Assembly: GCA_963700995.1 (NCBI GenBank)
Contig: CAVOZP010000006.1
Coordinates: forward strand, 69,544 to 133,543
DNA length: 64,000 bases
Direction: 5' to 3'
Source of the DNA: an uncultured Acidimicrobiales bacterium
GTDB taxonomy: Bacteria; Actinomycetota; Acidimicrobiia; Acidimicrobiales; JAHEJN01
Positions 10,404 to 26,532 of this stretch are shown one piece after another (the stretch's first letter is position 1; each line of letters begins with the position of its first letter). The translations under genes and the position numbers were made by a program. The notes beneath the pieces were generated by a model. It was not told the origin of the DNA and made no database searches. It worked only from the letters and a program-made list of their open reading frames with translations.

Positions 10404-10634
10404 GTGACGGACGCGGAATGGATGAGCCAATTCGACGCCGCCGAGCAGCTCCAGATCTCGATGTGGGCGATCGGGAGCTACATCTCTACCGGTCGATTGA
10501 CTCCAGCCGAGAATCCGGCGGGTCAGGCAGGGGTTACCCGGGTGAGTGTCGACACGGAAGCCGAGTGGCGACACGGCCGCCCTCTTCACGGGCGGTTCTG
10601 GCGCCGCGTAAAGGACCAGCTTCGGATCTTCTGA
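10404..10634 (+). CDS. small helix-turn-helix protein (excisionase/MerR-like)
   Basis: VTDAEWMSQFDAAEQLQISMWAIGSYISTGRLTPAENPAGQAGVTRVSVDTEAEW resembles Xis-type HTH proteins. Start is uncertain (GTG 10404 or ATG 10422). Confidence 0.45.
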   Translation: MTDAEWMSQFDAAEQLQISMWAIGSYISTGRLTPAENPAGQAGVTRVSVDTEAEWRHGRPLHGRFWRRVKDQLRIF

Positions 10635-10739
10635 CCATCTCGGAACGTCTGGAGTGGTCAGTGCAGCCCATGGCTGTCCCATCCAGGCACTTAACACTTG
10701 CAGCATGGGGGTCTGCCGCGGATAGCGGTGACAGGTTGG

Positions 10740-10988
10740 TTATGCGGCCAGGGCGGCCGGTGGGGTCATGATGGTTTCGTATTCGGTGGGGGTCAATCGG
10801 CCGAGGGCGTCTTGGCGTCGTCGGCGGTGGTAGGTGCGTTCGATCCAGGTGATGATCGCGATGCGTAGGTCGCGCGGGTCTCCCATCGGCAGGCGGGCCT
10901 TCATCCGCTCATCGATGGCCCAGCCGACGATCCGGTTCGACCACAGATCCTTGATCGCCGACGGCCCGATCTCGGGGCACCTGATCGG
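10740..10988 (-). mobile_element. IS3-family transposase (OrfB/rve) remnant with internal deletion
   Basis: My minus-strand translation is PIRCPEIGPSAIKDLWSNRIVGWAIDERMKARLPMGDPRDLRIAIITWIERTYHRRRRQDALGRLTPTEYETIMTPPAALAA*. An early rve motif (DLWSNRIVGW) is joined directly to the typical C-terminal tail (YHRRRRQDALG.LTP.EYE). There is no start codon, and no inverted repeats were seen. Confidence 0.7.
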
Positions 10989-11525
10989 TCAGCGTGCTCG
11001 GGCCTCGACGTCGAGCTGGTGGTGCGTGTACTCGTGGGCGAGCCAGCGCAGACCGTCAGCAACGGTGCCCGCACCCCAGTCACCGTGTTCGAACGGGGTG
11101 GCGTGGTCGAGCTCCCTGCTCAAGTGCACGAAACTGGCCGTGGCCTGATCCAGTGCCCACAACGCCGGAACCGTCGGCAGGTTGCGGTAGTTCCGGGCCG
11201 CTGCGAGCACGTCGGGGTCCCAGCCGGCCAGCAGCGAGCCGGGGGTGTCCTCGATCTGCACCCAGCGCTCCGACCAACTACGAGCCAGGTCGGTCAGGTG
11301 CCAGAGGTAGGCGGTGGCGTTCCAGCCTCCATCGTCGGGGGCGACCATGCCGTCCCGATCCGCGAGAAGCGCCGCATACCGATCGGGCGCCGCCTCGATC
11401 GCATCGACTGCCGCAGCGGACTGCATTGTCCAATCGAGGGCGCAGACGTCGCATCGGTCCCGGATAGTCCCGTTGTCGATCCAGGCCAGAGCACCGTTGA
11501 GGAACGGGGAGCGGGTCGCGTCCAT
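10989..11525 (-). CDS. DinB-family (mycothiol-dependent-enzyme-like) protein
   Basis: 178 aa from ATG 11525: ..AAVDAIEAAPDRYAALL..GWNATAYLWHLTDLARSWSERW..WLAHEYTHHQLDV. The N-terminal 240 codons of track ORF 10989..12251 are Arg/Ser-rich and rejected. Confidence 0.7.
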   Translation of the reverse strand: MDATRSPFLNGALAWIDNGTIRDRCDVCALDWTMQSAAAVDAIEAAPDRYAALLADRDGMVAPDDGGWNATAYLWHLTDLARSWSERWVQIEDTPGSLLAGWDPDVLAAARNYRNLPTVPALWALDQATASFVHLSRELDHATPFEHGDWGAGTVADGLRWLAHEYTHHQLDVEARAR

Positions 11526-12028
11526 AGACCGAGTGTCGCGCACAGAACGGCCCAAGCCGAGCACTGCATAGTCCTGGCCAGCGGTGACCGACGACAACGC
11601 CGAAGCGCTCGATCCACCGCCGTCCACCGACCGCCGACATCGCTTCTCCCTCGTAGCGGGTGCCAATAACGACCGCGCGACTGTCAGATCCTCGGTGTAG
11701 GTGGTCTGGCCTGAACGCTGCACCGACATGGCTCGGCCGAAAAGGACAGACCACGATGTGACGGTGGCGACACCGTCGGACGACACGGGCCAGGAGCGGC
11801 CGGACCGGTCGCTCGCAGAGCAACTCGTCGATGAGACCCCCGCTGATCTCAAGGTCGCTGGCCGATCCGCAACGCTCCGCTCGTCTCCCAGGCCGGCCGT
11901 TCGCGACGAACGCTCACGCCCGGCCATCCCCCAACGCTCGGAACACCTTGGCGGGCAACGCGCCTCAAAGTGTCGGTCAAGGGCACCCCATATCACGCGC
12001 ACCCCGGATACTTCTGCTCCAGCTGCTT

Positions 12029-12253
12029 CTAGCGACCCGAAGTCCCCCGACCCCGGCGAAATCCGACGGCGACGAAACCGACGAATACCGCTAGTCCCAT
12101 AGCGAAGGCGCCTACCGTGAGGACGGCCTCGGCCCAGCCAGGCCACGGGTCGTCGCCAAACAGCCAGAGCCAGTAGACGCCGGCTCCGAAGGCCATCACG
12201 GCCACGGTCACTCCAATGCCGGAAGCAAGGCCCAACAGGACGTAGCGCCACAT
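12029..12253 (-). CDS. small two-helix membrane protein
   Basis: MWRYVLLGLASGIGVTVAVMAFGAGVYWLWLFGDDPWPGWAEAVLTVGAFAMGLAVFVGFVAVGF.. No family recognised. Confidence 0.45.
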   Translation of the reverse strand: MWRYVLLGLASGIGVTVAVMAFGAGVYWLWLFGDDPWPGWAEAVLTVGAFAMGLAVFVGFVAVGFRRGRGTSGR

Positions 12254-12394
12254 GGGCGCATTATCGCCGAGAACCTCGGGTGCAGGTTCGTCGGGGTGAT
12301 CGGGAGTGCCGATGCGAGCGGATGCGTCGCGGGCTGGGGGTTGGCGTTCCTGAGCGGGTGTCGCGAGCGCACGACCTGGGATTTCGTGGTGGCA

Positions 12395-12549
12395 CCAGGT
12401 AAAGCCCAGGTCCCGTCCGGTTTCCGGTGCGGGGCCTGGTGCGTTTCGGCGCTTGTCCCATCCAGGCATCCCATCCACGGCAGCGATTCGCTAGCTGGAA
12501 ATCCTCACAACTGAGGTAGGCGCTCGAGTGGGCCAGAACGCGACACGAT
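12395..12549 (+). repeat. module B repeat, copy 2
   Basis: See 3153-3307. Hairpin at 12405-12439, box TGTCCCATCCAGGCATCCCATCC, 33-mer core at 12502-12534. No tRNA-like half precedes this copy. Confidence 0.8.
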
Positions 12550-12719
12550 ATGGCTGGAAGTCCCATCGAGCCCATTCCACCTGGGCCGGTCAGCGGGCTA
12601 TCACGATTCCTCACCTGCCAACGACTCGAACACGCGTTGTGCCAGCAAGCGGCTGCTGGGCGTCTTGACCAGAGTCTCAAGTCCCTTCACGTACGCACAT
12701 GACGATGCGATGGTGATTA

Positions 12720-15176
12720 GTGGCTGACTGCTGGTGGCGGTGCCGAAAGTTGACGGGGGGTGTCGTGGTGGTTCGACGGATCGCGGTGGTGGCGGGGGTG
12801 CTGTTGTTGGCGGGTGTGCTCGCCTTTGTCGGTGGAGGTGCGGTGAGCGCCCAGGACGGCGGGGGGGATCTGTCAGGGGCCGATGCCAATGAGGGCGGCC
12901 CGGGATTTGTGCTGCCTGCGAGCCGCATCACCGCCGGCAGCCTCCATTCGTGTGCCTTGTTGAACAACGGGACGGCCCGCTGCTGGGGCGTGGGCGATGT
13001 GCTCGGGTATGGGAACACCGAGTCGATCGGTGATGACGAGGTGCCGGCCTCGGCAGGGCCGGTTGATCTGGGCGTTGGCCGTACCGCCACCGCCATCAGC
13101 GCCGGCGGCTCATTGAATGGCCATTCGTGCGCCTTGTTGGACAACGGGACAGTCCGCTGCTGGGGCAGCGCCTTCTCTGGTGAGCTGGGCTATGGCAACA
13201 CCGACTGGATTGGGGATGACGAGGTGCCGGGTTCGGTGGGGCCGGTCGATCTGGGTGCGGGTCGCACGGCGACCGCTATCGCGGCGGGCGGGGACCATTC
13301 GTGTGCGTTGTTGGACAACGGAACGGTCCGTTGCTGGGGCCGCGGTGACAGCGGTCAGCTCGGCTACGGCAACACCGACTGGATTGGTGACAACGAGACA
13401 CCGGGTTCGGTGGGGCCGGTCGATCTGGGCATGGGCCGCACCGCCGTCGCGATCACCGCCGGCAGCAGTCATACATGTGCGGTGCTCGATGATGGGACGG
13501 TCCGCTGCTGGGGTGCCGGCATTTCCGGCAAGCTGGGCTATGGCAACACGAGCGACATCGGCGACAACGAAACCCCTGGCAGCGTTGGGCCCGTCGACCT
13601 CGGCTCTGGCCGCACGGCTCTGGCGGTCACTGCTGGTGGCAGCCACACGTGTGCGTTGTTGGACAACGGAACGGTTCGCTGCTGGGGTGAGGCCGGCGAC
13701 AGCACCACCCCCAGTGGGGCGCTCGGGTATGGCAACACGAACGACATCGGCGACGACGAGACCCCCGGCAGCGTAGGTCCTGTCACCCTTGGCCCTGGCC
13801 GGACGGCCGTAGCGGTCACCGCCGGTCTGTCTCATACGTGCGCCTTGTTGGATGACGGCAACGTTCGCTGCTGGGGTGCCAACTTCAATGGTGAGCTGGG
13901 CTATGGCAACACGAACGTCATCGGCGATGACGAGACCCCCGACAGCGTAGGTCCCGTCAGCCTTGGCCCTGGCCGGACGGCAGTAGCGATCACTGCCGGT
14001 GCTTCTCAGACGTGCGCTGTTCTGGATGACGGCACTGTTCGCTGCTGGGGCTACGGCCTTTACGGAGCACTGGGTTATGGCAACACGAACAACATCGGCG
14101 ACAACGAGACCCCGGGTTCGGTGGGGCCGGTTGACCTGGGCGGGCTCTTGGTGGAGGACACTGACGGAGACGGGGTGGCCGACGTCTCGGACAACTGCCC
14201 GGCGGTGGCCAACGCGAACCAGCTCGACACTGACGGTGACGGCGCTGGCGATGTGTGTGACGCTGATGACGACAACGACGGTGTGGCCGACGTCTCGGAC
14301 AACTGTCGCGTTGTGAAGAACGCCGATCAGGCCAACAACGACGGTGACAGCCTGGGCGACGTGTGTGACCCTGATGATGACAACGACGGGGTGGCCGACG
14401 GTGTCGACAACTGTCCGTTGACTGCGAATCCCGCCCAGTCCGATGTCGATGGTGACGGCCCCGGCGACGTATGCGACTCGATCGACAATCGTCGAAACCG
14501 GATCTTTGTCACCAACGTGATCCAGTCCGGGCCTGCCGAATACGACTTCGTGTTCGGCAACGCATTCGAAGAACTGTTCACTGGTGACTGGGACGGCAAC
14601 GGTCACGACGGCTTCGCCCGGCGGCTGGGGAGAACCATCGTCGAAGTCGATGAACGCGGCCGAGCGATCCGCAGGATCACCTTCGGCACCGCCACTGACA
14701 TGTTGTACCGGGTCGGTGACTGGGACGGCGACAACATCGACACGTTCGCGGTTCAACGGGGCAACGTCTTCTTCGTGACCAATTCGCCGACCGGCGGCCC
14801 CGGGCCCGCTCCCATCGGGTACGGGAGGGCCGGCGATGAGGTCTTCGTTGGCGACTGGAACGGCAACGGCCAAGACACCTTCGCGGTGCGCCGCGGCAAC
14901 GTCTTCTATGTCCGCAACTCGGTCACCACCGGGCCGGCCGACATTGTGTTCGGCTACGGGAGGGCCGGCGACGAGGTGCTGATCGGGGACTGGGACCAAG
15001 ATGGCGTCGACACGTTCGCGGTGCGCCGCGGCAATGTGATCTTCATCCGCAACGATTTCCAGACCGGGATCGCCGAGACCGTCATCGGCTATGGCAGAGC
15101 CGCCGACACGCTGTTGGTTGGCGACTGGAACGGCGACAACGTCGATACCTTCGCCGTGCAGCGCAGAGAACTCTGA
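12720..15176 (+). CDS. secreted RCC1-repeat / thrombospondin-type-3 Ca-binding repeat / FG-GAP-like repeat protein
   Basis: Signal-like RRIAVVAGVLLLAGVLAFVGGGAVSAQ. About 8 RCC1-type blades (HSCALLDNGTVRCWG..G.LGYGNT..IGD.E.PGSVGPVDLG.GRTA). About 5 DxDGDGxxDxxDNC units. Five C-terminal GDW(D/N)G.G.DTFAVRRGN.F units. Confidence 0.85.
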   Translation: MADCWWRCRKLTGGVVVVRRIAVVAGVLLLAGVLAFVGGGAVSAQDGGGDLSGADANEGGPGFVLPASRITAGSLHSCALLNNGTARCWGVGDVLGYGNTESIGDDEVPASAGPVDLGVGRTATAISAGGSLNGHSCALLDNGTVRCWGSAFSGELGYGNTDWIGDDEVPGSVGPVDLGAGRTATAIAAGGDHSCALLDNGTVRCWGRGDSGQLGYGNTDWIGDNETPGSVGPVDLGMGRTAVAITAGSSHTCAVLDDGTVRCWGAGISGKLGYGNTSDIGDNETPGSVGPVDLGSGRTALAVTAGGSHTCALLDNGTVRCWGEAGDSTTPSGALGYGNTNDIGDDETPGSVGPVTLGPGRTAVAVTAGLSHTCALLDDGNVRCWGANFNGELGYGNTNVIGDDETPDSVGPVSLGPGRTAVAITAGASQTCAVLDDGTVRCWGYGLYGALGYGNTNNIGDNETPGSVGPVDLGGLLVEDTDGDGVADVSDNCPAVANANQLDTDGDGAGDVCDADDDNDGVADVSDNCRVVKNADQANNDGDSLGDVCDPDDDNDGVADGVDNCPLTANPAQSDVDGDGPGDVCDSIDNRRNRIFVTNVIQSGPAEYDFVFGNAFEELFTGDWDGNGHDGFARRLGRTIVEVDERGRAIRRITFGTATDMLYRVGDWDGDNIDTFAVQRGNVFFVTNSPTGGPGPAPIGYGRAGDEVFVGDWNGNGQDTFAVRRGNVFYVRNSVTTGPADIVFGYGRAGDEVLIGDWDQDGVDTFAVRRGNVIFIRNDFQTGIAETVIGYGRAADTLLVGDWNGDNVDTFAVQRREL

Positions 15177-15412
15177 ACACCGCAATCGACAGTGGCCAAG
15201 GTGACGGCGCCGATGCTCGCGGACTACTAGGCGGGTGGCGCCGAGGTTGGTGACGTCGCGGATCTCGGCCGGTAGGGAGTTTGAGCGCCCTGGAGTCGAC
15301 CGTCCTCCGGTCCGTGTCGGTCGGGTCGGTTCAGCAGAAGCCGCCAAAGATGAGGCAGCCCGCTCGGCCGCTGACGATTGTGGCAATGGCATGAACGTGG
15401 CATAATTATGGC

Positions 15413-15653
15413 ATGGCTCGTACTCGACTCAGCACCACCGTGGACGGCGAACTCCTCGAGACGGCACGAAGGGTGCGGACGGGCGGGACCGACGCCGAGC
15501 TCATCGATGAAGCATTGCGGGCACTGGTTGCGCGCTATCGCGCCGCGGAGATCGATGGAGCCTACGATGCCCGCGTACCGCGCTCATCCCATCGACGAGC
15601 CAGACGAGTGGGGCGATCTCGCATCGTTCCGCGACGCATCGGCAGCGACATGA
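15413..15653 (+). CDS. ribbon-helix-helix type II antitoxin (MazE-like), frame broken near 15565-15575
   Basis: [48 protein letters not shown] / [26 protein letters not shown]. The stop overlaps the toxin ATG (ATGA at 15650-15653). Confidence 0.65.
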
Positions 15654-15978
15654 CGGATCTGCCGAGGCGCGGCGAGCTGTGGTGGTGCGAACCACCCGAG
15701 ATTGGCCGACGACCTGTGGTGGTGCTGTCGCGCGATGTTGTCATCCCAATGATGAGGCGCGCGCTCTGATCGCGCCGTGCACGACGACCATTCGAGGTTT
15801 GCCGAGCGAAGTCGTCCTCGAACCTGGCGACGAGCCGATCGGACGTCGAAGCGCCGTCAACCTCGACTCGGTCGAATCGGTGTCGATCGCCGTGCTCGTC
15901 GAGCGAATCGGCGCGCTCAGCGGAGAGCGTATGCGTCAGATCTGTGGCGCGCTGGAAGTCGCGACCGATTGCGAATGA
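15650..15978 (+). CDS. mazF: MazF/PemK-family endoribonuclease toxin, frame broken near 15745-15765
   Basis: [33 protein letters not shown].. / ..[66 protein letters not shown]. Confidence 0.75.
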
Positions 15979-15991
15979 CGACTTGGTTCCC

Positions 15992-16250
15992 CGGGCACGA
16001 TCTCATCCCATCCGCCATCCCATCTGCTGCACGGGTTCCGCGTCACCAGCCGGACGGGGCAACACTGGATCACACGGTTTCGCAGCCCCTGGGCAGTTGT
16101 CGGTGTCTTGCCAAGGTTGAGGTCGCCGGTTCGAACCCGGTCATCCGCTCGCAAATACGCAGGTCACGGCCACTTTTGGCCGTGACCTGACGCGTGGGCA
16201 GATTGGCGTCATCCCATCCGCGTAACTTGACACCTGCAACATGGCGCCGC
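15992..16250 (+). repeat. tRNA-Gly(GCC) 3'-half-containing repeat, copy 3 (long form)
   Basis: Collinear with copy 2: box from 16004, tRNA-like half 16107-16149, hairpin, single downstream box TCATCCCATCCGCGTAACTTGACA. Begins about 14 nt after the MazF stop. Confidence 0.85.
16160..16189 (+). terminator. perfect 13-bp hairpin after tRNA-like end
   Basis: Same CAGGTCACGGCCA CTTT TGGCCGTGACCTG as at 9906-9935. Confidence 0.6.
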
Positions 16251-16306
16251 GTCGAGCGTGTCATGCTGGCGCATGACCAGCTGGTTCCACGAGAAGGCTC
16301 GCAATC

Positions 16307-17927
16307 GTGGCGATGCCTGATCAGCTCTACGAACGATTGGCAACAGCACTCCGGCAAGCCGGATGCACAGCCTTGTTCGGTCTCCCCGGTGGCGGTCCGA
16401 ACCTCGACGTCGTCGGTGCTGCACTGCAGGAAGGGATCGAGTTCGTGCTCGCCCACGGCGAAACCGAGGCCGCGATCATGGCGGGCACCTACGGGCTGTT
16501 GACCGGCACTCCCGGCGCAGTGGTCGCGACACGTGGCCCAGGCGCCACGTCGCTCGCAAACGGAGTCGCCCAGGCAACACTCGACCGCTTCCCGCTGGTC
16601 GCGATCACCGACACCGTTCCCGCTGCACAGTCTTCGAGAGTTGCTCATCAGCGGATCGATCAACGATCGTTCTTTGCGCCGATTTCGAAGACGAGCGCAA
16701 CGATCGGGCAACACGCCAGCGTGCAGCACCTCACGGAGTTGATCAACGAATCGACCCTCTGGCCGTACGGCACAGTCCACCTCGACTACGACCCCACCGA
16801 CACCACACCTCGGCGCGACCGCTCCCGGAACCGTGTGGTTCGTGAACCGACGACAAGTGACATTGCGGCGGCCACCGAGCTGCTCGCGCGAGCCGCCACC
16901 CCTGTCGTCGTGCTTGGTGCCGAAGCCGTCCCGCACGCAGCGGCGCTGCGGCCGCTTCTCGAACGAGCCGGCGCTCCGGTTCTCGACCACCTATCGCGCC
17001 GTCGGTGCGGTGCCGACCGAGGGCTTTCTCAACGCCGGTCTGTTCACGAACGGCAAGCTCGAGTCCGCAGTCCTCGGTGACGCCGACCTGATCGTCACCG
17101 TCGGACTGGATCTCGTCGAACCGATCCCTCGACGATGGGGCTACGACGCTCCGGTGATTCGGGTTTCTGCGGTTGACCAGGTCGACGATTACCTACCTGC
17201 CACGGTCGATCTCGTCGGTGCAATCGAGTCGACCTGCAAGGAGCTGTTCGGTCGCGTTGCCCCAGGTGCTGCTCGCGCCCAACCCAGGTACGCATCCGAC
17301 GCACGCGAAGCGGGGCGTCGGCAGATCCGCCAATGCGACACCACCGCGTTCGGACCCACCACGCTGGTCGATGCCGTGGCCAAAGCCCACCCTCGAGACT
17401 CCATCGTCACGGTGGACGCCGGGGCGCACTTTCTTGCGGTGATGCCGCTCTGGAGCGTCGACCGGCCGAACAGGCTGCTGATCTCGAATGGGCTGGCCAC
17501 CATGGGATTCGCGGTACCTGCGGCGATCGGGGCCGCAATTGCCACTCCCGGATGCAACGTGATCGTGTTCACCGGAGACGGCGGCATGTCGATGATGCTC
17601 GCTGAGCTCGAGACGATCGCCCGACTACAACTGCCGATCACCGTCGTGGTGTTCAACGACGCGACGCTCAGCCTGATCAAGATCAAACAGACGGCCCGAC
17701 ATGGCGGCCACCGGTCCGTCAGCTACGCCCCGGTCGACTTCGCCAAGATTGCCGAAGCAAGCGGTCTACGAGGCGTCGTGGTGACATCGTCAGACGAACT
17801 CGACGCCGAACTGGCACTTCACAAATGGGGAGAACCGCGTGTGATCGACGCACGAATCGACCCATCCGCCTATCCGGCAATCATCGACGCGACCCGTGGC
17901 GCGACCAGCCGGGGCGCATCGGCATGA
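16307..17927 (+). CDS. thiamine-diphosphate-dependent enzyme (acetolactate synthase large-subunit-like), frame broken near 16980
   Basis: N-terminal ..LFGLPGGGPNLDVV..VLAHGETEAAIMAGTYG..ATRGPGATSLANGV.. ThDP motif ..VFTGDGGMSMMLAELETIARLQLPITVVVFNDATLSLI in track ORF 16833..17927. Confidence 0.8.
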
Positions 17928-17958
17928 GTCCGAAGCGGCGAGTCGGTTGGGCGTGGCT

Positions 17959-19899
17959 TCACTCGGGAAGCTCCATGACGTACACGTCCTGTTGTCCGTT
18001 GGTGTCGCCGTCGACCAGCCCGCTCGACGTCGAGAAGGTCGCCGAACGGCCGTCGCCGCTCAGCTCGAGCCGATCGAGCCCGAGCGAGTTACTCAGTTGA
18101 ACGGTGCTGCCGTCGAGAGTGTCCAGGACGAGGCTCTGTCCATTTTGAGTGGCCATCGCGATGTAACGACCGTCGGAGCTGATCGAGCTGGGTGAGGTCC
18201 AGAAGTCGGGTGCGAGCTCCAGAATCATCGTGTACTCGCCGATCGACCGGTCGTACACGAAGATGTCGTAGAAGCCGTTTACGTCATCGGGCACGAGACC
18301 TGGTGTGAATGACGGAAACACGAACCGCTCACCGTCGGGGTAGGGGAGGAGGCCGCCCTCCACGTCGGGAATACCGTCGAGTTTCGTGACGCTCCCCGTG
18401 TCGCGTTCGAAGATGAAGGCTCTGCTGTGGAGCTCGGATGTCACGACAAGGGAGCCATCGGGGGTCACCGCTGGTGGCGACACGCTTGCCCCCTCTCGCG
18501 TCATGTCGAATTCGGCGACCAGGGTGGTGGCGCCCGTCGTGGTGTCGTGGACCCAAACTGTATATACCGGCGGACGACCGTCCTCCCCCTGGGCAGCGGG
18601 GACGCCGCCCGGAGCAAGTTGGCCCCCGGGGTAGGTTGCGTAGGCGATGAGGGTGCCGTCGTCGCTCATATCGGGGTCGATGCTTTCTGACGGATGTTCC
18701 TGACCGTTGGGCATGAAGCTGATGTAACTGTTGCGTCCGGTCTCACGATCGTGGAGGTAGATGTCGCCGGGGCTTGTCTGTTCGTAGTCGGGATCGAGGT
18801 TTGTGGCGTCGGATGCAAACGCGATGTAGCGGCCATCTGCGGAGATCTGGGGGTCATGGCTGGCTCCCTCGGCCTCTTCGACTCGGTCGCCGAACACGAC
18901 TTGGCTGACTCGGGTGGTTTCGCCGGTCTCTCGGTCGTGGACGAACACGTCCCTGTTCCCGTTGGTGTCGCCGTCGACCAGGTTCGATGCCATCGAGTCG
19001 AATGCGACGTACCGGCCGTCGGCCGAGATGACCGGGTTGACGCTGTGGCCGTCACCCTGGGTCCCGTCGCTGGCGACGCTGACTCGGAATATCGTTTCGT
19101 TTTCGGCGGCCCCGAGTGCGGATTCGTCGCCCTGCTCGGAGACCAGTGGTTCGCTGCCGCCGGGTTCCTCCGAGACCAGCGGTTCACCCTCACCCGGTTG
19201 CTCGGCAACCAGCGGTTCACTTTCACCTGCAACGTCGACGGTTGCACGCTCGCTCGACCCCTGGTCGTTGCCCGCCAGAATCAAGCCGATACCAACGCCT
19301 CCGGCAACCAGAGCCGCGGCCGCCAGGCCAACGAGCGCAGTTCGAGGGATCCGGAGCTTCCGCCGCGAACGTCTTGGCGATGGGGCAGCGGGCGGCGCGA
19401 TACCGCGCTCGGCCAACATCGAACCGACCATGCCCTGCAACGAAACGGCGTGATCAGCGATCGATCCGGGGAACAGGTCGATCCACTGGGCGAGACGCAA
19501 CAGGTAGTTCAGGGTGCCGGTCGGGGCTACGTCCTCGACTCGGACCGGTAGCAGTGGCTTGGCTCGCTCCACCGCCAGATCGACCTCACGGGCGACATGC
19601 GCTGAGCCGCTCGCGTTCGCCGAGACGACGATCAGCATCACGTCGCACGATTCGATCGCTGCTTCGATCTGTTCGGGCCACGGTGTGGGGCCGGCGACAT
19701 CGTCAGGAGCCATCCAACAGGCAAATCCACCTGCTTCGAGATGGGCCCGAATCTCGCGGGCCAGGCCGTCGTCGGTCTTCTCGTGACTGATGAACACCAC
19801 ACCAGGGCGCAACGGCGACACGGGCGACGGCTGATCGCTCGGCGTGTGTGGCACTGCGTGTGGGCGCGAGATCTGCTCGGTGGGGTTGGAGTCGTCCAT
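17959..19899 (-). CDS. TIR domain - TM helix - PD40/TolB-type beta-propeller protein (TIR-A)
   Basis: From ATG 19899: TIR-like VVFISHEKTDDGLAREIRAHLEAGGFACWMAPDDV..VMLIVVSANASGSAHVAREVDLAV. TM helix TALVGLAAAALVAGGVGIGLILAG. Three 12-aa linker repeats. Propeller repeats SADGRYVAFDS, SADGRYIAFAS, SDDGTLIAYAT, SSDGRYIAMAT with DGDTNG..DV(F/Y)V. The 308 upstream codons of the track ORF overlap TIR-B and are rejected. Confidence 0.8.
   Translation of the reverse strand: MDDSNPTEQISRPHAVPHTPSDQPSPVSPLRPGVVFISHEKTDDGLAREIRAHLEAGGFACWMAPDDVAGPTPWPEQIEAAIESCDVMLIVVSANASGSAHVAREVDLAVERAKPLLPVRVEDVAPTGTLNYLLRLAQWIDLFPGSIADHAVSLQGMVGSMLAERGIAPPAAPSPRRSRRKLRIPRTALVGLAAAALVAGGVGIGLILAGNDQGSSERATVDVAGESEPLVAEQPGEGEPLVSEEPGGSEPLVSEQGDESALGAAENETIFRVSVASDGTQGDGHSVNPVISADGRYVAFDSMASNLVDGDTNGNRDVFVHDRETGETTRVSQVVFGDRVEEAEGASHDPQISADGRYIAFASDATNLDPDYEQTSPGDIYLHDRETGRNSYISFMPNGQEHPSESIDPDMSDDGTLIAYATYPGGQLAPGGVPAAQGEDGRPPVYTVWVHDTTTGATTLVAEFDMTREGASVSPPAVTPDGSLVVTSELHSRAFIFERDTGSVTKLDGIPDVEGGLLPYPDGERFVFPSFTPGLVPDDVNGFYDIFVYDRSIGEYTMILELAPDFWTSPSSISSDGRYIAMATQNGQSLVLDTLDGSTVQLSNSLGLDRLELSGDGRSATFSTSSGLVDGDTNGQQDVYVMELPE
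19129..19227. repeat. 36-nt x about 3 in-frame tandem repeat in the TIR-A linker
   Basis: Encodes GESEPLVAEQPG / EGEPLVSEEPG / GSEPLVSEQGD. Coordinates derived by codon counting from 19899. Confidence 0.7.
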
Positions 19900-20094
19900 G
19901 GTGCCGACCTGAGACAATCGTTCTGCACGGCTGCTGAACTTCGATCTTCCACCATCAATTGAAGGATGGAAGGGCACCTTGCTGGTAGAGCACTTGGGCC
20001 CGATTCTCCGGCGAGTCGTGCACGCTCCGAGGGTCGCGTCGGTCTGGTGACGAAAGGCACTTCCGTGGGGCATCCGCATCGTCACATGATGTGG

Positions 20095-20874
20095 ATGAGT
20101 CCAGACAGGCGCGCGCCTTGGCAGCCGGTCATGTGGAGGGAGGCGCACGTGGCGCATGACGTGTTCATCAGTTACTCGTCTACCGACAAGGCCGTGGCAG
20201 ATGCTGCGTGCGCCACGCTCGAGAAGCGGAGGATTCGTTGCTGGGTGGCCCCACGCGATGTGCCGGCCGGTGTTTCGTGGGCCTCGTCTCTGGTCGAGGC
20301 CATTGGTGGCAGCAGGGTTGTCGTCCTGATCCTCTCGAAGGGATCGAACAGCTCGCCGCAAGTCATCCGTGAGGTGGACGAGGCGGTCGGGACGGGGATC
20401 CCGGTCGTGCCGCTGCGTATCGACGACGTCGAACCGTCGGACCAGATGCGCTTCTACATCAAGTCGGTGCACTGGCTCGATGCCCTCAGCCCGCCGATGG
20501 AAGAGCACCTGAAACGCTTGGCCGACTCGGTCGAGGCCTTGTTGGCGGTGGGCGACGACCGACGGCCGCCGCTCGGAGAGCAGCCCGGCGACAGCCCGAC
20601 CACGCCTCGTGCCGTTTCGGCTCAAATCCTCGAGACCGGCAGAGTCGTCGATGCGGTCGTCACGAAAACGTCGATGGACATGGCGACACTCAGCCTTCCC
20701 GACGGCAACATCGGCAAGATCATCCTGCCCGACTATCGGCTGCTCCTCGTTTTCAAGCCGCTCAAATGGCTGAGCCGCAAGTACGCGGTGGGAGACCGCC
20801 TCACGGTCAGGATCAAGCGGCACATGCGGACCGGGAACTACTCGTGTGAGCCCTACATCGATCCAACCGTGTGA
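20095..20874 (+). CDS. TIR domain protein with C-terminal OB/S1-like module (TIR-B)
   Basis: HDVFISYSSTDKAVADAACATLEKRRIRCWVAPRDVPAGVSWASSLVEAIGGSRVVVLILSKGSNSSPQVIREVDEAV..HWLDALSPP. C-terminus GRVVDAVVTKTSMDMATLSLPDGNIGKIIL..GDRLTVRIK. Start is 20095 (by analogy with TIR-E) or 20131. Confidence 0.8.
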   Translation: MSPDRRAPWQPVMWREAHVAHDVFISYSSTDKAVADAACATLEKRRIRCWVAPRDVPAGVSWASSLVEAIGGSRVVVLILSKGSNSSPQVIREVDEAVGTGIPVVPLRIDDVEPSDQMRFYIKSVHWLDALSPPMEEHLKRLADSVEALLAVGDDRRPPLGEQPGDSPTTPRAVSAQILETGRVVDAVVTKTSMDMATLSLPDGNIGKIILPDYRLLLVFKPLKWLSRKYAVGDRLTVRIKRHMRTGNYSCEPYIDPTV

Positions 20875-20884
20875 TCAGTCGCGG

Positions 20885-22576
20885 CTATCTCGCTGAGGAC
20901 CCTCCACAGTAGGAAACGATCTGATAGCCGGCGCGCGCCAGAAACGCTGGGATCCCTCGGACGGCCTGGCGATCCTGCTCCTTGACACCGTCGCTCAGCT
21001 CATTCCATGGCACCAGGTACGGCGAGGTCTTCGCGTCGACGTCTCTGGGGCCCGAGGTCCATCCGTTGCGTCGACGTTCGTGCACCCATCGTTCGTGCTC
21101 CATCTCCGAGAGCATCTCCACCTCCGCGTCGGTGAAGGTCACTTCGTGGGCGTCCCAGTCGGTGAGCGGAGCGATTCCCCGGCCGATGGCGGCGAGCTTG
21201 GTGCCGATGTGGCCGGCCTGGTCTCGGTTCGACTCCTTGAGCGATGCCGCGAGCTTCTCCCACGGCGCCATGGAGGGATTCGTTTCCGGCCGTGCCCCTC
21301 GGAGTCGTTGCTGGGCCACGTACTCCTCGTGGGTCGCTCGAGCCAAGATTTCGTACGTGCCACCGAGAAGGAGATCGGTCTGCATGGTTCGGTCGAGGAC
21401 GCTGAACGCCCGAATGCGGCCGGAGTGAGTCGGCCGGTCGACCAATCGGCCGAGCGCGCCGGTGTGGCTCAGTTCGACCACGATGAGGGCGTCGGGCATC
21501 TCCAGGCAGCGTTGGATCGCAAGGCCGGCTCGGACAGAGCGCGAGTCGTCGTCGATGCAGATGTAGATCGTCTTCGCGGCTGATTCTCCGATGGCATCGG
21601 TGTCGACCGGGTCGATGGCGGCGACCACCGGGTTGATGTTCGCGGCGTGGTCGAGCTGTGGGTAGCGGCGGCACAGTCGGTCGATGATCGTGTTGGCGTC
21701 GGGATCCACGACCGTGATGTCGATGGGCCGGCCTCGGGCGGTGGGGTGAGCTCTCCATTGGCGGGCGAGCTCGGCCACCAGGGTCTGACCGAGCCGATTC
21801 AACCCGACCACCATGACGGCAGTGAGGCCATCGTCGAGTTCGTCGGCCGGAAACGGCGAGAAGTCGCGGAGCATGAGCCGGGCACCCTGCTCGTCGATGT
21901 TGAAGAAGTCGAGACGCGTGCCGGCGGGATGACTCGCGGCGAGCTCGTCGGATCGCATGAGCACGCAGAGATCCGGATCTCGGATGCGGGCGAGACACGA
22001 CAAACCGGGGCCCTGCCGCTCGGCGACCAGGTCCATGGCGTCGAGGACCACTTCGGCGTTGGTCTCATCACTGCCGGTGAGACAGACGAGATGCGCGGCA
22101 CGAGCCAAACGGGCCCGTCGAAGCGTGTCACGGTCGCGCGCATCGCCGACGATCACGGCGGCACCTCGGTGACGACTGGCCACGATGGCGGGGTTGAGCC
22201 CATCGGCCTCGATTCCCACGACACGTTGACCTGCGTCGAGGAGTTGTGTCACGAGCCTGGTACCGGCTGTGCCCAGGCCGCAGACGACGACGTGGTTGCG
22301 GGTTCGCCCGAGACGCCACTCCCGTATCTGCTCGCTGAAGGCCGTCGAAACTGCGGCAATCAGTGCCGTCGCCGAAGCCGCCGGCGCTGCGAGCCGCGCC
22401 ACTTCGAGCTGCCACGGTGCGCCGGTCGCCGGGACGCTGCCGGACTCGAGCGTGAAGAGTTGAAGGCTCAGGTAGACGACGTCGGATGTCGACTTGGCGA
22501 TACCCGCCTCATCGAAGTACTCACGGAAGCCGACGTAGCCGAGGACGAAGGCGGTCACGGTGAAGGCGGCCAGCAA
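20885..22576 (-). CDS. 2-TM pore-loop channel-like / tandem TrkA-N (RCK) Rossmann / tandem RyR-repeat protein
   Basis: TM1 AAFTVTAFVLGYVGF. Pore-helix-like VVYLSLQLFTLESGS, with no TVGYG filter. TM2 LAAPAASATALIAAVSTAF. GxGxxG motif VVVCGLGTAGTRLV and a second VMVVGLNRLGQTLV. C-terminal RyR-type repeats THEEYV..APWEKL..SNRDQA and MEHERWVHERRRNGW..YLVPWNELSDGVKEQDRQAVRGIP. Confidence 0.8.
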   Translation of the reverse strand: MLAAFTVTAFVLGYVGFREYFDEAGIAKSTSDVVYLSLQLFTLESGSVPATGAPWQLEVARLAAPAASATALIAAVSTAFSEQIREWRLGRTRNHVVVCGLGTAGTRLVTQLLDAGQRVVGIEADGLNPAIVASRHRGAAVIVGDARDRDTLRRARLARAAHLVCLTGSDETNAEVVLDAMDLVAERQGPGLSCLARIRDPDLCVLMRSDELAASHPAGTRLDFFNIDEQGARLMLRDFSPFPADELDDGLTAVMVVGLNRLGQTLVAELARQWRAHPTARGRPIDITVVDPDANTIIDRLCRRYPQLDHAANINPVVAAIDPVDTDAIGESAAKTIYICIDDDSRSVRAGLAIQRCLEMPDALIVVELSHTGALGRLVDRPTHSGRIRAFSVLDRTMQTDLLLGGTYEILARATHEEYVAQQRLRGARPETNPSMAPWEKLAASLKESNRDQAGHIGTKLAAIGRGIAPLTDWDAHEVTFTDAEVEMLSEMEHERWVHERRRNGWTSGPRDVDAKTSPYLVPWNELSDGVKEQDRQAVRGIPAFLARAGYQIVSYCGGSSAR

Positions 22577-22686
22577 GAGCCAGCCGCGTCGAGCGCCAGG
22601 CTGCGGTCAACTTGACGCCTACTGAGCGACGAAGGGACCGGCGCCGGGTGACCGGGTCGTTGGGGTTCACCGGACGTCACCCCTTC

Positions 22687-25315
22687 TCACGCATCGAGGG
22701 TGACGACGCGCAGGCCGACCGTTGCGAGGAGCTCGGGGATTGCCTGCACCACCAGCCGATCCTTGTTCCGTGCGCGTTCGTTCCCAGCCAGCGATCCCGG
22801 ACCCAGCCGGCGTCTGACCGAGTAGGGATAGCGGGCGATCCGCTCGGCGTCGGTCATCGGGGCCCAGGGCACCAGATCCGGGTCGGTCCAGGGTGCCTCA
22901 CCGTCGTTGCCCCAGCAGAAGCCCTCGGCGACCCTTTCCGCGATCCAGCGGTCGTGTTCGAGTTGAGCGAGTCGTTCGATGATCTGGGGAGACAGGTCGA
23001 CCACGGGTTCTGCGCCGTTCCCGAGCGGGGCGAGGGCGTGACCGATGATGGCGAGCTTTCTGGGGATGTCGAGCACGGCGGCCCGGCTGGCCGACCGCTC
23101 GGCGTCGCTCAGCTCGTCCCAGGGAGGCCAGGAACCCCAGTCGTTGTCGGCTGCGGCGGTTCGGAAGCGCTCGTGCAGGCCCTTGGCGAGCTTCTCGGCG
23201 AGGGGCCCAACGACTGGAACCCGGCGTGCGAGCGTGAGGAACTCCTCGTCGTCGACGTGGAGGCGCAGCTGGGTTGCCGGAGGCAGGGCCGACCGGTGGT
23301 AGTGCTGTTCGCCGGCGAGGCGGCTGCCGGCCACGATCGACTCCATCGAGCGAACGCCGTGGCGGAATCGGCGCACATCCAGGAAGGCGCCGGCGACGTC
23401 CGGGTCGACGGCGAGCTCGCGGACTCCGTCGGCTCGCGGACGCCAGAGCTGCGGCCACGTCCGAGTGAGCAGGGATTGCAGCACGATCGCGCGACGAATG
23501 ACGTGCTCGGGGTCAGCCGCGGGGTCGTCGGTGCCGGGATCGGGGCCGAGGATGTCGACGGTGGCCCGCAGTCGGCTCAAGAAGTCGGGCCCCTTCACGC
23601 TTCGGAATCGAGCCGTGCGTTCCTCGCCGGATCGGCCCAGATCGCGTCCGAGGTCGTCGAGGCGTTCTGCTGTTCCGCCGGCGAAGACGAAGATCGCCCG
23701 GCCGAACGGATGGACGACTGGCCCGTCGTGGAACTCGCCGTCCTGCATCGGGGCGAGGAAGTGCGGACAACCGAGCGGTTGGCTCCGCGGTGGTATCGAA
23801 CTCGTCCCAGAAGACCAGCGGCACGGGGCCGACAGACCGGCGTCACGTACGAGATGGAACGCGGTGATGGAGCTCGTCGGGTCTTTCGACCTGCGACAGG
23901 TTGAAGGTCAGCTTCTCCACCTCACCGGCGTGCAGCGAGCGAGCGAGCTGTTTGACGGCGAACGACTTGCCCGACCCTGGCGGCCCGAAGACAGCGATCG
24001 ACAGCGGTCGCGGTGGTCGGGGCAGGGCGCAGTATTCGGCAATCAGGTTCTGGACACTTCGGAACCCCTCGATCTCGCGACGATCGGCAGTGAGGAGGGC
24101 ACCGAATCGACCAACGGGCATGCCCTTCAGCGCGGGCCCCGGGCCGAGCCGCACGATCTGCCTTGCGAGGTGATCGAAGCCGCCGATGTGGTGCTCTCGC
24201 AGGATCGACCACTGGCCATCGTGGCCGGTGGGTGGTGGCACGACGGTCGTGGCGAAATCGTCTGGCTCGCGTTGGAGCGCGGCCGCGACGGTTTCGTGGG
24301 GGAACCGGATGGCGGTGCTTCCGGGCTCGGGAGCGATGAAGCCGGTCTCGTGCAACGCGCGCAGCGCAGTCAAGCCGCGTCGAGCGCCGTCGACGAGCGC
24401 GACTTCGGCCGACATCGTGGTGAGCGTCGACGCCAAGCCGACCGTGAGGCAGGTCGTTCCCCCGATCATGCCGCCTGGCCGATTGGCCTCCCAGGTCCCT
24501 TCCATCTCGCGCGGATCGAAGACCAGCTTCGAGTCGAGCTCGAGGTCGGGGCTGCGGCGGTGGGCAACGAATGCGCCTGCCGCCCCGAACGATACGACGA
24601 CGTCTGCGGCCTGCGCGAGCGGAGCCAGCTCCGTCGCTGACGAGAGCGCCCGGGCGAGGTCTTGGGCCGAGGCCTCCCAGGACATGCCCCGGCTCACCTC
24701 CACACCCGAACGCCGGACGTCGCCGACGGTGGTGACGACGACGAGGCGCTCGATGTCGAGGTCGAGCAGGCGCCGGAACAGGGCGCTGCGACCGAACAGG
24801 TCGGAGGTCTTCAACACGACGACCCGCGGCGCCGCGGCGGCCTGCTCACGGATGGACGACGGCCACAGCTGCGGGTCTTCGCTGAAGCCCAGTCCGCCGT
24901 CGTCAAGGAGCGCGACGTCGGGGCTCGCAGCATCATCCTCGACCTGCGCCCACTCGGCGGCAGGCGGGCACATGTCGTCTCGGCGCGCCAAGCCGAGGTA
25001 GTCGCCCATCCGCCAGACGGGCTCCTTCGAAGTGTGGGTGAAGGGGTAGGGCGCCCACGCCGCGCTCGAGTGATGGAAGCGCCGATCGTCGGGTCGCGGG
25101 GGTGCGCCGGTGGGAATCGACCGAACATCGGCCTCGATTGCCGCTCTCGTGAGTGAGGCGAGCAGGCACGCACCACCGGGCTGCAGGCTGATCGATGCGT
25201 ACTGTTCGCCCGACCAGGACACTGTGGTCGAGGTCGGGCTCATGTCGGCCACGTTCCAGTCGAGGGTGACGTCGCCGGCGATTACCAGGGTCGGCACGGG
25301 AGTGGCCGATGTCAT
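22687..25315 (-). CDS. PfkB/ribokinase-like domain + AAA+ ATPase + tandem RyR-repeat protein, three frame breaks at 23770-23870
   Basis: N-terminus TLVIAGDVTLDWNV..QPGGACLLA..LLDDGGLGF..FGAAGAFV..RPGGMIGGTTCL is ribokinase-like but lacks the GAGD anion hole. Walker A AVFGPPGSGKSFAV, Walker B PLVFWDEFDT, then FLAPMQDGEFHDG..AIFVFAGGT. C-terminal RyR-type repeats LHERFRT..PPWDELSDAERSASRAAVLDIP and LEHDRWIAERVAEGF..DLVPWAPMTD..NKDRLVVQAIP. Pieces are track ORFs 23843..25675, 23513..23824 and 22687..23748. AFHLVRDAGLS reads in the third frame. Confidence 0.75.
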
Positions 25316-26532
25316 GTCGAGGCTCCCTCGGGCGGGGCTGTCATGGTGAAGTAGTCGAAGCCCAAACCGTCGATGTCGTCCCCGAAGTCCTTCGCGGCCG
25401 TGGTCGGCTCCGGCGACGAGTCGAAGCGGATGTTGGAATAGGTGACCGGGGCACTCTGGCCGTATTTGACGAGCGCGATGCGGCCACTCCGGTTCATTTC
25501 CGGTGACAGCACGACCGAGGCGACCTTCTGGTCGTCGACGAGAAGACTGCCGAAGTCGCCCACCACCTCGATCTTCATGGTGAAGGTGTCGCTCGTCTCG
25601 CCGTCGAGCACCATTTGATTCTCGAAGAGCCACTCGGTGCCGTCGTAGATCGTGTGGGCTCGTACGGCCTGCCAAGCACCTGTGATGTTGAAGATGAGCG
25701 AGCCCTGCGACCAGCTCGGCCCGTCTCCATAGACCACAACCATGCCCTCGCCGAAGCCCGTGAAGTCACTGGTCACGTCGATCTCGAGCGCGAAGTCACC
25801 CTCGATGGTCTCTTCGGTCCAGGCGAACGTGTCATCCGAGCCGGTCGCCCGGTACGTCTCGGGAGCAGGACTCGACCATTGACTGTCGTTGGGCACGACG
25901 AACGACAGGGTCTGTCCTTCGTCGCCGGGGTCCGACCCCGATCGGGAGAGTGCGAAGACGAGCGATCCGACGACAACCATGGCCAGCGTCGCGCCGATGA
26001 CGGCCAGGGTTCTCGCCGGGAGGCGGCGTCGGGGCCGAGGAGCCGCAGTCGTGATGTCCGGTGCGGGAGCGACGGTGTCTGCGGCCGACTCCACCTCCAA
26101 CGCGGCGTCGACGAGGGCGGAGAGCCTGCTCAAGTGGCGCTCGAGGGGCGGGGTCAACGCGTCGAGCCAGTGGATCGACTTGATGTAGTAGCGCATCTCG
26201 TCGGAGGGTTGAACGTCCTCGATCCTGAAGGGGATGATGGGCAGGCCGTTGTCGACTGCTTCGCCGACCTCTCGGTTCACCTGGGGCGACGCGTTGGAGC
26301 CCTCGGACAGGATCAGAACCAAGATGCGGCTGCGGCCGATCGCTTCGACGAGCGAGGCCGCCCAGGATCGACCCGGTGGTACGTCGCGAGGCGCGATCCA
26401 GCACCTGGTGCCGTTCGCTTCGAGAGCCGCACACGCAGCATCTGCGACGGCCTTGTCTCGCGCTGAGTAGCTGATGAACACGTCGTGAGTCACGGGTTGC
26501 CTCCCGGCGCCGCCAGGCCTCCTTGAGTTCAT
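25312..26532 (-). CDS. TIR domain - TM helix - DUF1080/concanavalin-like jelly-roll protein (TIR-E)
   Basis: HDVFISYSARDKAVADAACAALEANGTRCWIAPRDVPPGRSWAASLVEAIGRSRILVLILSEGSNASPQVNREVGEAV. TM helix TLAVIGATLAMVVVGSLVFAL. C-terminus ..FALEIDV..GMVVVYGDG..TMKIEVVGDFGSLLVDDQKV..GRIALVKYGQSAPVTYSNIRF. The stop overlaps the next gene's ATG (ATGA). Start taken at ATG 26532. Confidence 0.8.
   Translation of the reverse strand: MNSRRPGGAGRQPVTHDVFISYSARDKAVADAACAALEANGTRCWIAPRDVPPGRSWAASLVEAIGRSRILVLILSEGSNASPQVNREVGEAVDNGLPIIPFRIEDVQPSDEMRYYIKSIHWLDALTPPLERHLSRLSALVDAALEVESAADTVAPAPDITTAAPRPRRRLPARTLAVIGATLAMVVVGSLVFALSRSGSDPGDEGQTLSFVVPNDSQWSSPAPETYRATGSDDTFAWTEETIEGDFALEIDVTSDFTGFGEGMVVVYGDGPSWSQGSLIFNITGAWQAVRAHTIYDGTEWLFENQMVLDGETSDTFTMKIEVVGDFGSLLVDDQKVASVVLSPEMNRSGRIALVKYGQSAPVTYSNIRFDSSPEPTTAAKDFGDDIDGLGFDYFTMTAPPEGAST

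Follow-up and report, generated by a model that had tools for sequence, protein, structure and literature searches.

Is a bacterial locus in which genes for TIR-domain proteins stand beside genes for proteins with ryanodine receptor (RyR) repeats a signalling system, with the TIR proteins as makers of a nucleotide and the RyR-repeat proteins as its receivers? This question is raised by five genes, A to E, which fill positions 17959-26532 of a 64,000-nucleotide stretch of DNA from an uncultured Acidimicrobiales bacterium (contig CAVOZP010000006.1, positions 69,544 to 133,543; this whole stretch is called the window below). A, B and E encode TIR-domain proteins, and C and D encode large proteins that both end in a tandem pair of RyR repeats. 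A preliminary description of this DNA, made from the sequence alone, had proposed that the TIR proteins make a signal and that the RyR proteins are its receivers or effectors. The domain assignments and the gene linkage given below support this proposal in silico. Our reading, to which we give a probability of roughly 0.55, is that the locus belongs to a Thoeris-like signalling system, both widespread and conserved, whose RyR pairs would serve as the receiver of a TIR-made nucleotide.

All three TIR proteins named in the preliminary description match the Pfam model TIR_2, for which the cut-off is 28 bits: A scores 75 bits (7e-21), B 75.5 bits (7e-21) and E 80 bits (3e-22). B also matches the Pfam TIR model at 2e-8. 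Gene A (17959-19899, minus strand) encodes 646 amino acids (aa), which comprise an N-terminal TIR_2 domain (~19465-19797), a transmembrane (TM) helix (~19285-19341; hydrophobic aa 187-205, with RRSRRK just before it) and a C-terminal PD40/WD40-like beta-propeller. A related contig, L081, carries a 646-aa protein identical to A. Gene B (20095-20874, plus strand) encodes a soluble protein of ~241-259 aa, in which TIR_2 (~20161-20520) is followed by a C-terminal region of ~110 aa without a Pfam match even at E = 10. B is a paralogue of the TIR domain of E (69% identity in the alignment). Gene E (25312-26532, minus strand) encodes 406 aa with TIR_2 (~26155-26481), a TM helix (~25957-26013) and a C-terminal domain of ~200 aa. 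In L114, L148 and L031, TIR proteins encoded close to C-family genes have this C-terminal domain too. Two further Pfam domains had been expected. PD40 repeats were matched in A, and DUF1080 appeared in the C-terminal domain of E as a weak match (DUF1080/3keto-disac_hyd, PF06439; E = 0.01, 16 bits). Because basic residues stand before the TM helix of both A and E, we infer that the TIR domains of these proteins are cytoplasmic and that their C-terminal domains lie outside the membrane; the propeller of A is probably extracytoplasmic. The locus thus encodes two membrane-anchored TIR proteins, with a beta-propeller or a lectin-like domain outside, and one soluble TIR protein.

The preliminary description had also pointed to a Glu, in the motif REV, shared by A, B and E. 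This Glu is invariant in an alignment of 16 TIR domains encoded next to D-family genes, and its counterpart in the alignment with Cat1 and oyster TIR-STING is the Glu of their W/C..E motif. We take its position to be that of the catalytic Glu of TIR NADases, in the alpha-C helix. A profile built from the 16 domains also finds SARM1, AbTIR and RUN1.

Gene C (20885-22670, minus strand) encodes 563 aa if translation starts from the TTG at 22576, and ~594 aa if an extra G at 22585 is left out. The Pfam search called for in the preliminary description gave TrkA_N at 76 bits and RyR (PF02026; cut-off 27.4 bits) at 54 bits. From the N-terminus, C consists of a pore-like segment with two TM helices (2TM; ~22301-22670), an RCK (regulator of K+ conductance)/TrkA_N domain (~21932-22300), a second RCK-like domain (~21365-21931) and the RyR repeat pair (~20909-21364). 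The C-terminal 146 aa match the R12/R34 repeats of RyR1, RyR2 and RyR3 in the PDB at 1e-16, and they also match the Bacteroides protein 3NRT. In the AlphaFold2 (AF2) model of C, for which the predicted local distance difference test score (pLDDT) is 88.5, the N-terminus forms a helix, a short helix, a loop and a long helix, and two RCK-like Rossmann domains are followed by a four-helix RyR module. The top Foldseek match of this model is the K+ channel GsuK (2e-10), and further matches are the TrkA gating ring, MthK and human RyR3 Repeat12; the RyR module superposes on the RyR3 R12 structures 6uhh, 9l9b and 9ls7. The fold therefore suggests that C is a GsuK-like, RCK channel-type membrane protein. 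The loop at the place of the K+ filter reads LESGSVPG and is conserved in the family; the TVGYG of K+ channels is not present. The C family comprises 4637 clusters at 50% identity with E <= 1e-30, and the best named relatives of C come from Acidimicrobiia and Actinomycetota metagenome-assembled genomes (MAGs), at 50-59% identity.

Gene D (22687-25315, minus strand) would encode ~875 aa once repaired; as it reads, it consists of two open reading frames (ORFs), 23843-25315 and 22687-23748. Its parts are a ribokinase-fold domain (24131-25315), an AAA+ ATPase (23194-24130) and an RyR repeat pair (22690-23193). Homologues of D are single proteins, either of ~700 aa without RyR or of 830-857 aa with PF02026. 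For the N-terminal domain, the preliminary description had guessed PfkB. The ribokinase fold of this guess was recovered by Foldseek with the AF2 model of the N-terminal 400 aa (pLDDT 90.4), which matched 2abq (2e-9), 7c1x, 2f02 and ribokinases (E from 2e-9 to 1e-6, probability 1.00), with template modelling scores (TM-scores) on the target of 0.48-0.59 against PfkB/ribokinase structures; the Pfam PfkB model did not match D at E <= 0.01. The D-family consensus has PGxMIGYT where DTxGAGD is expected and keeps GG (QPGGAAL) and an N-terminal GDVTxD, all of these motifs having been placed by eye. The domain seems to have kept the GG and sugar-binding Asp motifs and to lack the catalytic Asp of GAGD. 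The middle of D, guessed to be an AAA domain, proved to be an AAA+ ATPase of the classical type: neither Walker A (GPPGSGKS) nor Walker B (VFWDEFD) varies within the family, the Arg region that resembles the second region of homology (KGPDFVSRLRG) is invariant or nearly so, and PF00004 is annotated on homologues of D. The C-terminus of D alone scores 25.9 bits with the Pfam RyR model, just below the cut-off, and the D-family profile matches R12 and R34 of RyR at 2e-29 with both repeats covered. Tandem RyR pairs, as first described for both proteins, are therefore present in C by Pfam and the PDB and in D by its family profile.

D occurs in at least 575 GTDB species genomes. The D and C families are found above all in soil and sediment MAGs of Chloroflexota, Acidobacteriota, Planctomycetota and Actinomycetota. 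A search of 2.9 million viral contigs gave one distant match each for C and D.

The linkage of TIR and RyR genes recurs across phyla and, like the domain architecture, was observed directly. We examined the best 80 of the at least 575 GTDB species-genome loci of D, with 10 kb flanks, and an independent sample of 80 metagenome loci of C. A TIR gene lies within 1 kb at 22 of the 80 D loci (21 of the 63 that have at least 1.5 kb on both sides) and at 17 of the 80 C loci (12 of the 37 with adequate flanks). Around D, TIR genes have a density of 15.9 per 100 kb within 1 kb and of 0.9-1.2 per 100 kb at 5-10 kb; the corresponding values around C are 13.3 and ~1. A census of this kind had been proposed in the preliminary description, and it places the linkage far above the local background. 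The preliminary description had named failed TIR and RyR profile searches, and a linkage no better than chance, as results that would refute it; neither was obtained. D is present at 12 of the 80 C-centred loci, C is present at 15 of the 80 D loci, and plain TIR + C pairs without D are found in L082, L083, L088, L090, L092, L104, L105, L121 and L138. In D-linked proteins of variable length, the TIR domain is usually N-terminal, with WD40, TPR or PPC domains downstream. Half of the TIR proteins linked to C or D (34/68) have one TM helix after the TIR domain and then WD40, PD40, PPC or other domains. Several TIR genes, C and D also stand together in L162 (JGI Ga0568915_0000081, 103141-115815), in a locus that appears to be intact. 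It encodes C (598 aa), a TIR-TPR protein (522 aa), a 398-aa protein, a D-like RyR protein (905 aa) and further TIR proteins of 224, 740 and 814 aa, the last with FGE-sulfatase and SH3_3 domains.

We also started from the TIR side, with eight close homologues of the TIR domain of E that were chosen only for their long contigs. Two of these adjoin RyR genes (one is L162, with C, a D-like gene and four TIR genes), one adjoins SLATT_1 and patatin genes (L167, 3483-6669), one adjoins a DUF4062 gene, and four have no such partner. The neighbourhood in L167 indicates that the clade of the E TIR domain is wired to other effector types too. Thus, TIR/RyR linkage is strong, but this TIR clade is promiscuous. 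Thoeris TIR clusters have likewise been reported to be promiscuous (doi 10.64898/2025.12.03.692087).

What ligand might an RyR pair bind? The closest biochemical information comes from a phage protein, RyDEP, which belongs to PF02026 and cleaves 2'/3' cyclic ADP-ribose (2'/3'cADPR) (bioRxiv, May 2026; PMC13232231). According to the same work, RyDEP is a glycosidase with an H75/D117 dyad, and its fold and ligand contacts (H75, W78, H100 and D117) match RyR3 Repeat12. Of eight other phage RyR homologues, six bind 2'/3'cADPR, two of them studied in detail and with nanomolar affinity, and none cleaved the signal despite high sequence conservation (PMC13232231). We took the RyDEP sequence from the supplement of that paper and aligned it with C and D. 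H75 and W78 of RyDEP align with the EH(E/D)RW motif of both proteins, and the His equivalent to H75 is at least 90% conserved in the C family. When the RyR module of C was compared with 50,697 phage records by tblastn, there were three weak matches only. We rejected the idea that C and D are themselves phage anti-Thoeris proteins of the RyDEP type; they have ~594 and ~875 aa and lie on cellular contigs.

The nature of the signal, its binding, the gating of C and a role against phages are predictions, and the proposed system would work as follows. A trigger, sensed outside the membrane in the case of A and E, would make the TIR domains assemble, and the assembled TIR domains would convert NAD+ into a nucleotide of the cADPR-isomer type. 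The RyR pair of C would bind this nucleotide, as the phage homologues of RyDEP do, and the RCK gating ring would open the pore. Ion gradients would collapse through the open pore, and the outcome would be growth arrest or abortive infection. In D, the RyR pair would bind the same signal and switch the ATPase, and the ribokinase-fold domain of D may bind a second ligand or process the signal.

C and D also have other recurrent partners. The most frequent partner of D is a protein of ~190 aa with the motifs GxTGHR, LAEGADR, WDG and GGTG, which is encoded directly downstream of D in 51 of the 80 D loci and, in 46 of these 51, lies within 300 nt of D or is fused to it. The protein is conserved, and in some loci it forms a fusion with D or with SLATT-like 2TM regions; examples are L007 12620-13198 and L001 12139-12690. 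Nine of 24 members gave sub-threshold Pfam matches to the SLOG-clan models YpsA, YAcAr, DprA and NDT, and a profile of the protein found nothing significant in the PDB. A SLOG fold is probable for this neighbour of D, but the assignment is weak. A protein of ~400 aa is encoded directly upstream of D in L013 (8689-9888) and L162 (1923-3119). The L013 protein has weak matches to nucleoside 2-deoxyribosyltransferase and CAP12/Pycsar TIR-like models, and its 398-aa counterpart upstream of the D-like gene in L162 has no Pfam match on record; it may be another TIR/SLOG-fold partner. DUF4062-NACHT-HTH_NWD1-WD40/TPR proteins, which begin with DUF4062, contain an NWD1-type winged helix and resemble nucleotide-binding leucine-rich repeat receptors (NLRs), occur in 32 of the 80 D loci (for example, L026 13227-17621, L017 12648-17672 and L012 3565-6597). 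They flank D about as often as TIR proteins do and stand in for TIR at many D loci; TIR or DUF4062 is present in 53 of the 80. A third family of RyR-repeat proteins, ~830-930 aa long, adjoins C-family genes in L089, L095, L100, L109, L113 and L117. In L089 (5062-7629) and L095 (3457-5943), this protein combines a RelA_SpoT nucleotidyltransferase, TPR, LSDAT_prok (SLOG) and an RyR pair; the members in L100, L109, L113 and L117 were assigned by size and RyR profile only. LSDAT_prok is the SLOG domain of TRPM channels. None of the SLOG-like, DUF4062-NACHT and RelA_SpoT-SLOG-RyR partners is present in the window.

Within the window, A and B are divergent, and E, D and C all lie on the minus strand. 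The stop of E overlaps the start of D in an ATGA at 25312-25315 (ACATGACA), as the preliminary description had claimed; therefore, E-D-C share one transcription direction. The TIR-coding DNA of B and E forms an inverted repeat, called I1 in our repeat scan of the window. Promoter and terminator scans gave counts at or below the shuffle expectation. The left flank carries toxin-antitoxin (TA) genes and a repeat protein. At 15413-15978 (plus strand), the ORF of a VapB-type antitoxin overlaps that of a PemK/MazF-type toxin. At 8607-9680 (plus strand), a TacA-like antitoxin domain lies within an unusually long ORF of 357 aa. Between them, at 12720-15176 (plus strand), an 818-aa protein contains RCC1 repeats (an RCC1-like beta-propeller) and thrombospondin type 3 (TSP3) repeats; its C-terminal repeats look FG-GAP/VCBS-like by eye, and the protein is probably secreted or located at the cell surface. 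On the right flank, the genes are of housekeeping type and encode an MtnA-like IF-2B protein and an amidohydrolase.

The preliminary description had placed the locus in a defence or accessory island, flanked by TA modules and att-like repeats. The TA modules are real and lie on the left flank (VapB/PemK and TacA-like). The locus is not bracketed by direct repeats of the att type, since all repeats detected are paralogous TIR or RyR coding sequence, and there is no tRNA gene in the window. Because both of these features are absent, we dropped the reading of an att site and an integrated island. Among 140 random neighbour ORFs of D loci, 12 PADLOC families were matched at 1e-8, with 15 member matches at most, a count without a baseline. 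Of the island claim, the TA modules stand; given the housekeeping right flank and the missing att repeats, the argument for an island is weak here, and the PADLOC signal around D loci is weak too.

Several observations weigh against the reading of the locus as a TIR-RyR signalling system. With regard to linkage, TIR genes are missing next to about two thirds of the C and D loci, six of the eight sampled homologues of the E TIR domain stand beside other partners or beside none, and the window lacks the SLOG-like protein, the partner most often found beside D. Signs of a defence island are weak, both in the window and around D loci, and a TIR protein with an extracytoplasmic sensor domain is unlike the known build of Thoeris ThsB. 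With regard to the receiver, H100 of RyDEP is replaced by Ser in C and by Asp in D, the position of D117 is ambiguous by two residues in the alignment with C and D, and the binding of cADPR isomers reported so far concerns phage members of PF02026. With regard to the output, the TM-scores of C against channel folds are modest (0.33-0.39 on the query), LESGSVPG stands in place of TVGYG, and no Pfam ion-channel model (Ion_trans-type) matches C; because of the last two points, the term channel for C rests on fold. In addition, the Walker B codons of D are out of frame in the window.

These observations must be set against other explanations. The same wiring might serve transmembrane (outside-in) or developmental signalling or programmed dormancy and not anti-phage defence, which we consider rather unlikely. 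Membrane TIR receptors, through their extracytoplasmic propeller or lectin-like domains, would then respond to cues from the envelope or from outside the cell, for example to neighbouring cells, polysaccharides or damage, and the second messenger would gate the RCK channel-like C and the ATPase D. The 34 of 68 linked TIR proteins that are TM-anchored with downstream domains, as A and E are, would suit this role, and so would the concentration of both families in soil and sediment MAGs of the four phyla named above, the common NLR-like DUF4062-NACHT-WD40 neighbours, the weak defence-island signal and the housekeeping right flank. However, known immune and conflict systems have the same set of partners (SLATT, SLOG-like, TIR, NACHT and patatin), the left flank carries TA modules, and the experimentally characterised bacterial TIR-plus-effector operons in the papers considered here are all anti-phage. 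The role of the RyR modules, too, could be another one. If they were enzymes or sinks for 2'/3'cADPR, they would form an off-switch or set a threshold, and the true effector would lie elsewhere. The glycosidase dyad of RyDEP suggests this idea, since the His is kept in C and D and a conserved Asp is found within two residues of the D117 position. It is very unlikely in our estimation: cleavage was seen for none of the eight other phage homologues despite their high conservation, and binding for six (PMC13232231); the RyR pair is fused to large output-type domains, like the sensors of Thoeris effectors and of those of cyclic-oligonucleotide-based antiphage signalling systems (CBASS); and two-gene modules of TIR + C offer no other candidate effector.

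A further alternative does away with the messenger. The TIR proteins would be effectors that deplete NAD+, and the RyR repeats would sense the energy state as ATP/ADP; the gene linkage would then come from a common stress response. Human RyR3 Repeat12 has been crystallised with ATP, ADP and AMP-PCP (6uhh, 9l9b and 9ls7), RCK domains of the GsuK type bind ADP and NAD+ (4gx1 and 4gx2), and many bacterial TIR proteins are NADase effectors. On the other side, the tight adjacency of TIR and RyR genes, often as a two-gene operon, is the signature that defines signalling Thoeris systems, and phage RyR proteins bind cADPR isomers with nanomolar affinity (PMC13232231); we consider an energy sensor highly improbable. 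We also considered RyR repeats as homotypic adaptors between C and D and gave this up as the leading idea, since some TIR + C pairs lack D and the phage biochemistry suggests that the repeats bind a ligand. A receiver of a TIR-made nucleotide is thus the function of the RyR pairs that we prefer.

Whatever the mechanism, is the copy of the locus in this genome intact? The preliminary description had treated D as a single intact gene within a set of five adjacent genes. The five genes are present, but three frame-shifting insertions or deletions (indels) near Walker B split D, and C is frame-shifted at its 5' end. As the reference for indels, we used contig L081 (ENA, 10.1 kb), which is 94.4% identical over window positions 16314-24376. 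The indel cluster that breaks D (23768-23870, minus strand) was located by three-frame translation, homologues and the L081 alignment. Between the two ORFs of D, the Walker B segment lies in a third frame; read along the gene, frame 1 extends to ...RPDEL and is followed by ITAFHLVRDAGLSA in frame 2, PVPLVFWDEFDTTAE (Walker B) in frame 1 and QPLGCPHFLAPMQDGEF... in frame 2. Compared with L081, the indels are at 23870 (+1), 23826 (-1), 23789 (-2) and 23768 (-3, in frame). C has a +1 insertion at 22585 near its 5' end, and its true start is probably the GTG at 22670, which gives 594 aa as in L081. The divergent spacer between A and B contains a second local cluster of indels, four +1 insertions in 86 nt (19948-20033).

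These frameshifts could be real, and this copy could then be a decaying, non-functional pseudogene cluster, an unlikely possibility that is independent of the mechanism. The three frame-breaking indels within ~80 nt around Walker B, the indel in the 5' end of C and the four in the A-B intergenic region speak for it. However, L081 has none of these indels and instead has a different 1-nt insertion in its own D, at the equivalent of window position 23409. A housekeeping gene for a thiamine pyrophosphate (TPP) enzyme is also frame-shifted in the window. Sister 'contig_N' assemblies show split genes, such as PALP in three pieces in L164, and several of the indels adjoin an identical base, as errors of long-read consensus do. 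Outside the indels, each gene is similar to its homologues over its full length and has no stop codons. Because the 94%-identical L081 lacks these indels, the frameshifts in D and C are most likely errors of the long-read assembly (consensus). The TPP-enzyme gene, which is acetolactate-synthase-like (16307-17927, plus strand), reads as two overlapping ORFs through a +1 at 16985 and is intact in L081 (537 aa, TPP_enzyme_N/M/C). To the left of this gene, window 10260-16314 and L081 8067-8645 are not colinear: L081 joins segments equal to window 10639-10260 and 15982-15786 straight to the TPP gene. Therefore, part of the TA region, together with the DinB-like and RCC1-TSP3 genes, is elsewhere or absent in the relative.

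If the signalling reading is correct, what would it mean? TIR signalling with an effector is known; the RyR receiver domain and the effectors C and D, all predicted, are what is new here. The locus would represent a large new TIR-signalling family, found chiefly in phyla that supply few laboratory models. The cellular role of RyR repeats in bacteria would be that of sensors of TIR products, which would complement the counter-defence role reported from phages in 2026. Membrane-anchored TIR proteins with extracytoplasmic sensors would be a new type of input for bacterial TIR signalling. It is a tentative and rather doubtful further step that a TIR-made cADPR isomer gates the channel-like C, and that this is a prototype of the disputed animal axis in which cADPR opens ryanodine receptors. 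In that case, the animal R12/R34 repeats would descend from receptors for ADP-ribose nucleotides made by TIR proteins or cyclases, and they may still act as such; membrane TIR proteins with extracellular propellers would turn the system into a Toll-like outside-in pathway in bacteria. In animal ryanodine receptors, it has been debated for decades whether RyR repeats are gated by cADPR-type ligands. C and D offer small, soluble and tractable RyR modules on outputs that are simple, namely a channel-like protein of the 2TM/RCK type in C and an AAA+ ATPase in D, and these modules allow a direct test of whether RyR repeats transduce such ligands into channel gating.

How does the locus compare with systems that have names? 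PADLOC v2, run on six ORFs, gave weak TIR matches only, and none of its models matches C or D; therefore, no named system applies. The literature available to us contains no description of a cellular TIR-RyR system. Both results agree with what the preliminary description had expected, namely no named defence system and no described system of this composition.

The animal axis of cADPR and the ryanodine receptor shares with the locus the RyR repeats, an ion-conducting protein and makers of cyclic ADP-ribose species. However, the pore domains of animal RyR and C are unrelated and the homology is confined to the repeats, and a direct action of cADPR on RyR repeats is not established in animals. 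Like the RCK channels GsuK, MthK and TrkA, C has a 2TM pore-like segment followed by two RCK (TrkA_N) domains, and its best structural matches are the TrkA gating ring and GsuK, a channel that binds ADP and NAD+. It differs from these channels in having LESGSVPG instead of TVGYG and an additional C-terminal RyR pair. RyDEP and the modules of C and D share PF02026 and a four-helix, R12-like module. In contrast, RyDEP is a small stand-alone phage protein that destroys or sequesters the host signal, whereas C and D are large cellular multidomain proteins (~594 and ~875 aa) that are practically absent from viral contigs and do not conserve H100. The neighbours of D (SLOG-like proteins, SLATT fusions, DUF4062-NACHT and TIR-WD40/TPR proteins) resemble those of the nucleotide-centred conflict systems built from SLOG, SLATT, TIR and NACHT. 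Three comparative-genomics papers on these systems (PMC7159879, PMC9503650 and PMC8195603) do not mention RyR repeats, a ribokinase-fold-AAA protein of the D type or a TrkA_N-RyR protein of the C type, all of which are present here.

The nearest comparison is with Thoeris. A 2025 survey distinguishes 29 putative types, among them type III and type IX with several TIR genes and type X with an ion-channel effector (doi 10.64898/2025.12.03.692087). In its text and available supplements, the terms RyR, PF02026 and TrkA do not occur. That the locus is the same system as type X is unlikely, because the type X TIR proteins are ThsB-type and come from Vibrio and Bacillus; type X was set apart on this point and on the absence of the three terms. 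In Thoeris (types I-XI) as in the present locus, one or several TIR genes adjoin an effector gene, the TIR domain keeps the Glu at the catalytic position, and the partner is a small nucleotide-binding module fused to an output domain, which is a prediction for C and D. As in type X, TIR is paired with an ion-channel effector, C being channel-like by fold. Three differences stand beside these likenesses. The receiver here would be an RyR repeat pair, which is absent from the sensor and effector annotations in the survey text and its available supplements. Thoeris TIR proteins are cytoplasmic and of the ThsB/DUF1863 type, whereas those of the present system belong to TIR_2 and often have extracytoplasmic domains behind a TM helix. 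Finally, the present system has two RyR proteins, one channel-like and one an AAA+ ATPase, and these are frequently accompanied by SLOG-like and DUF4062-NACHT partners.

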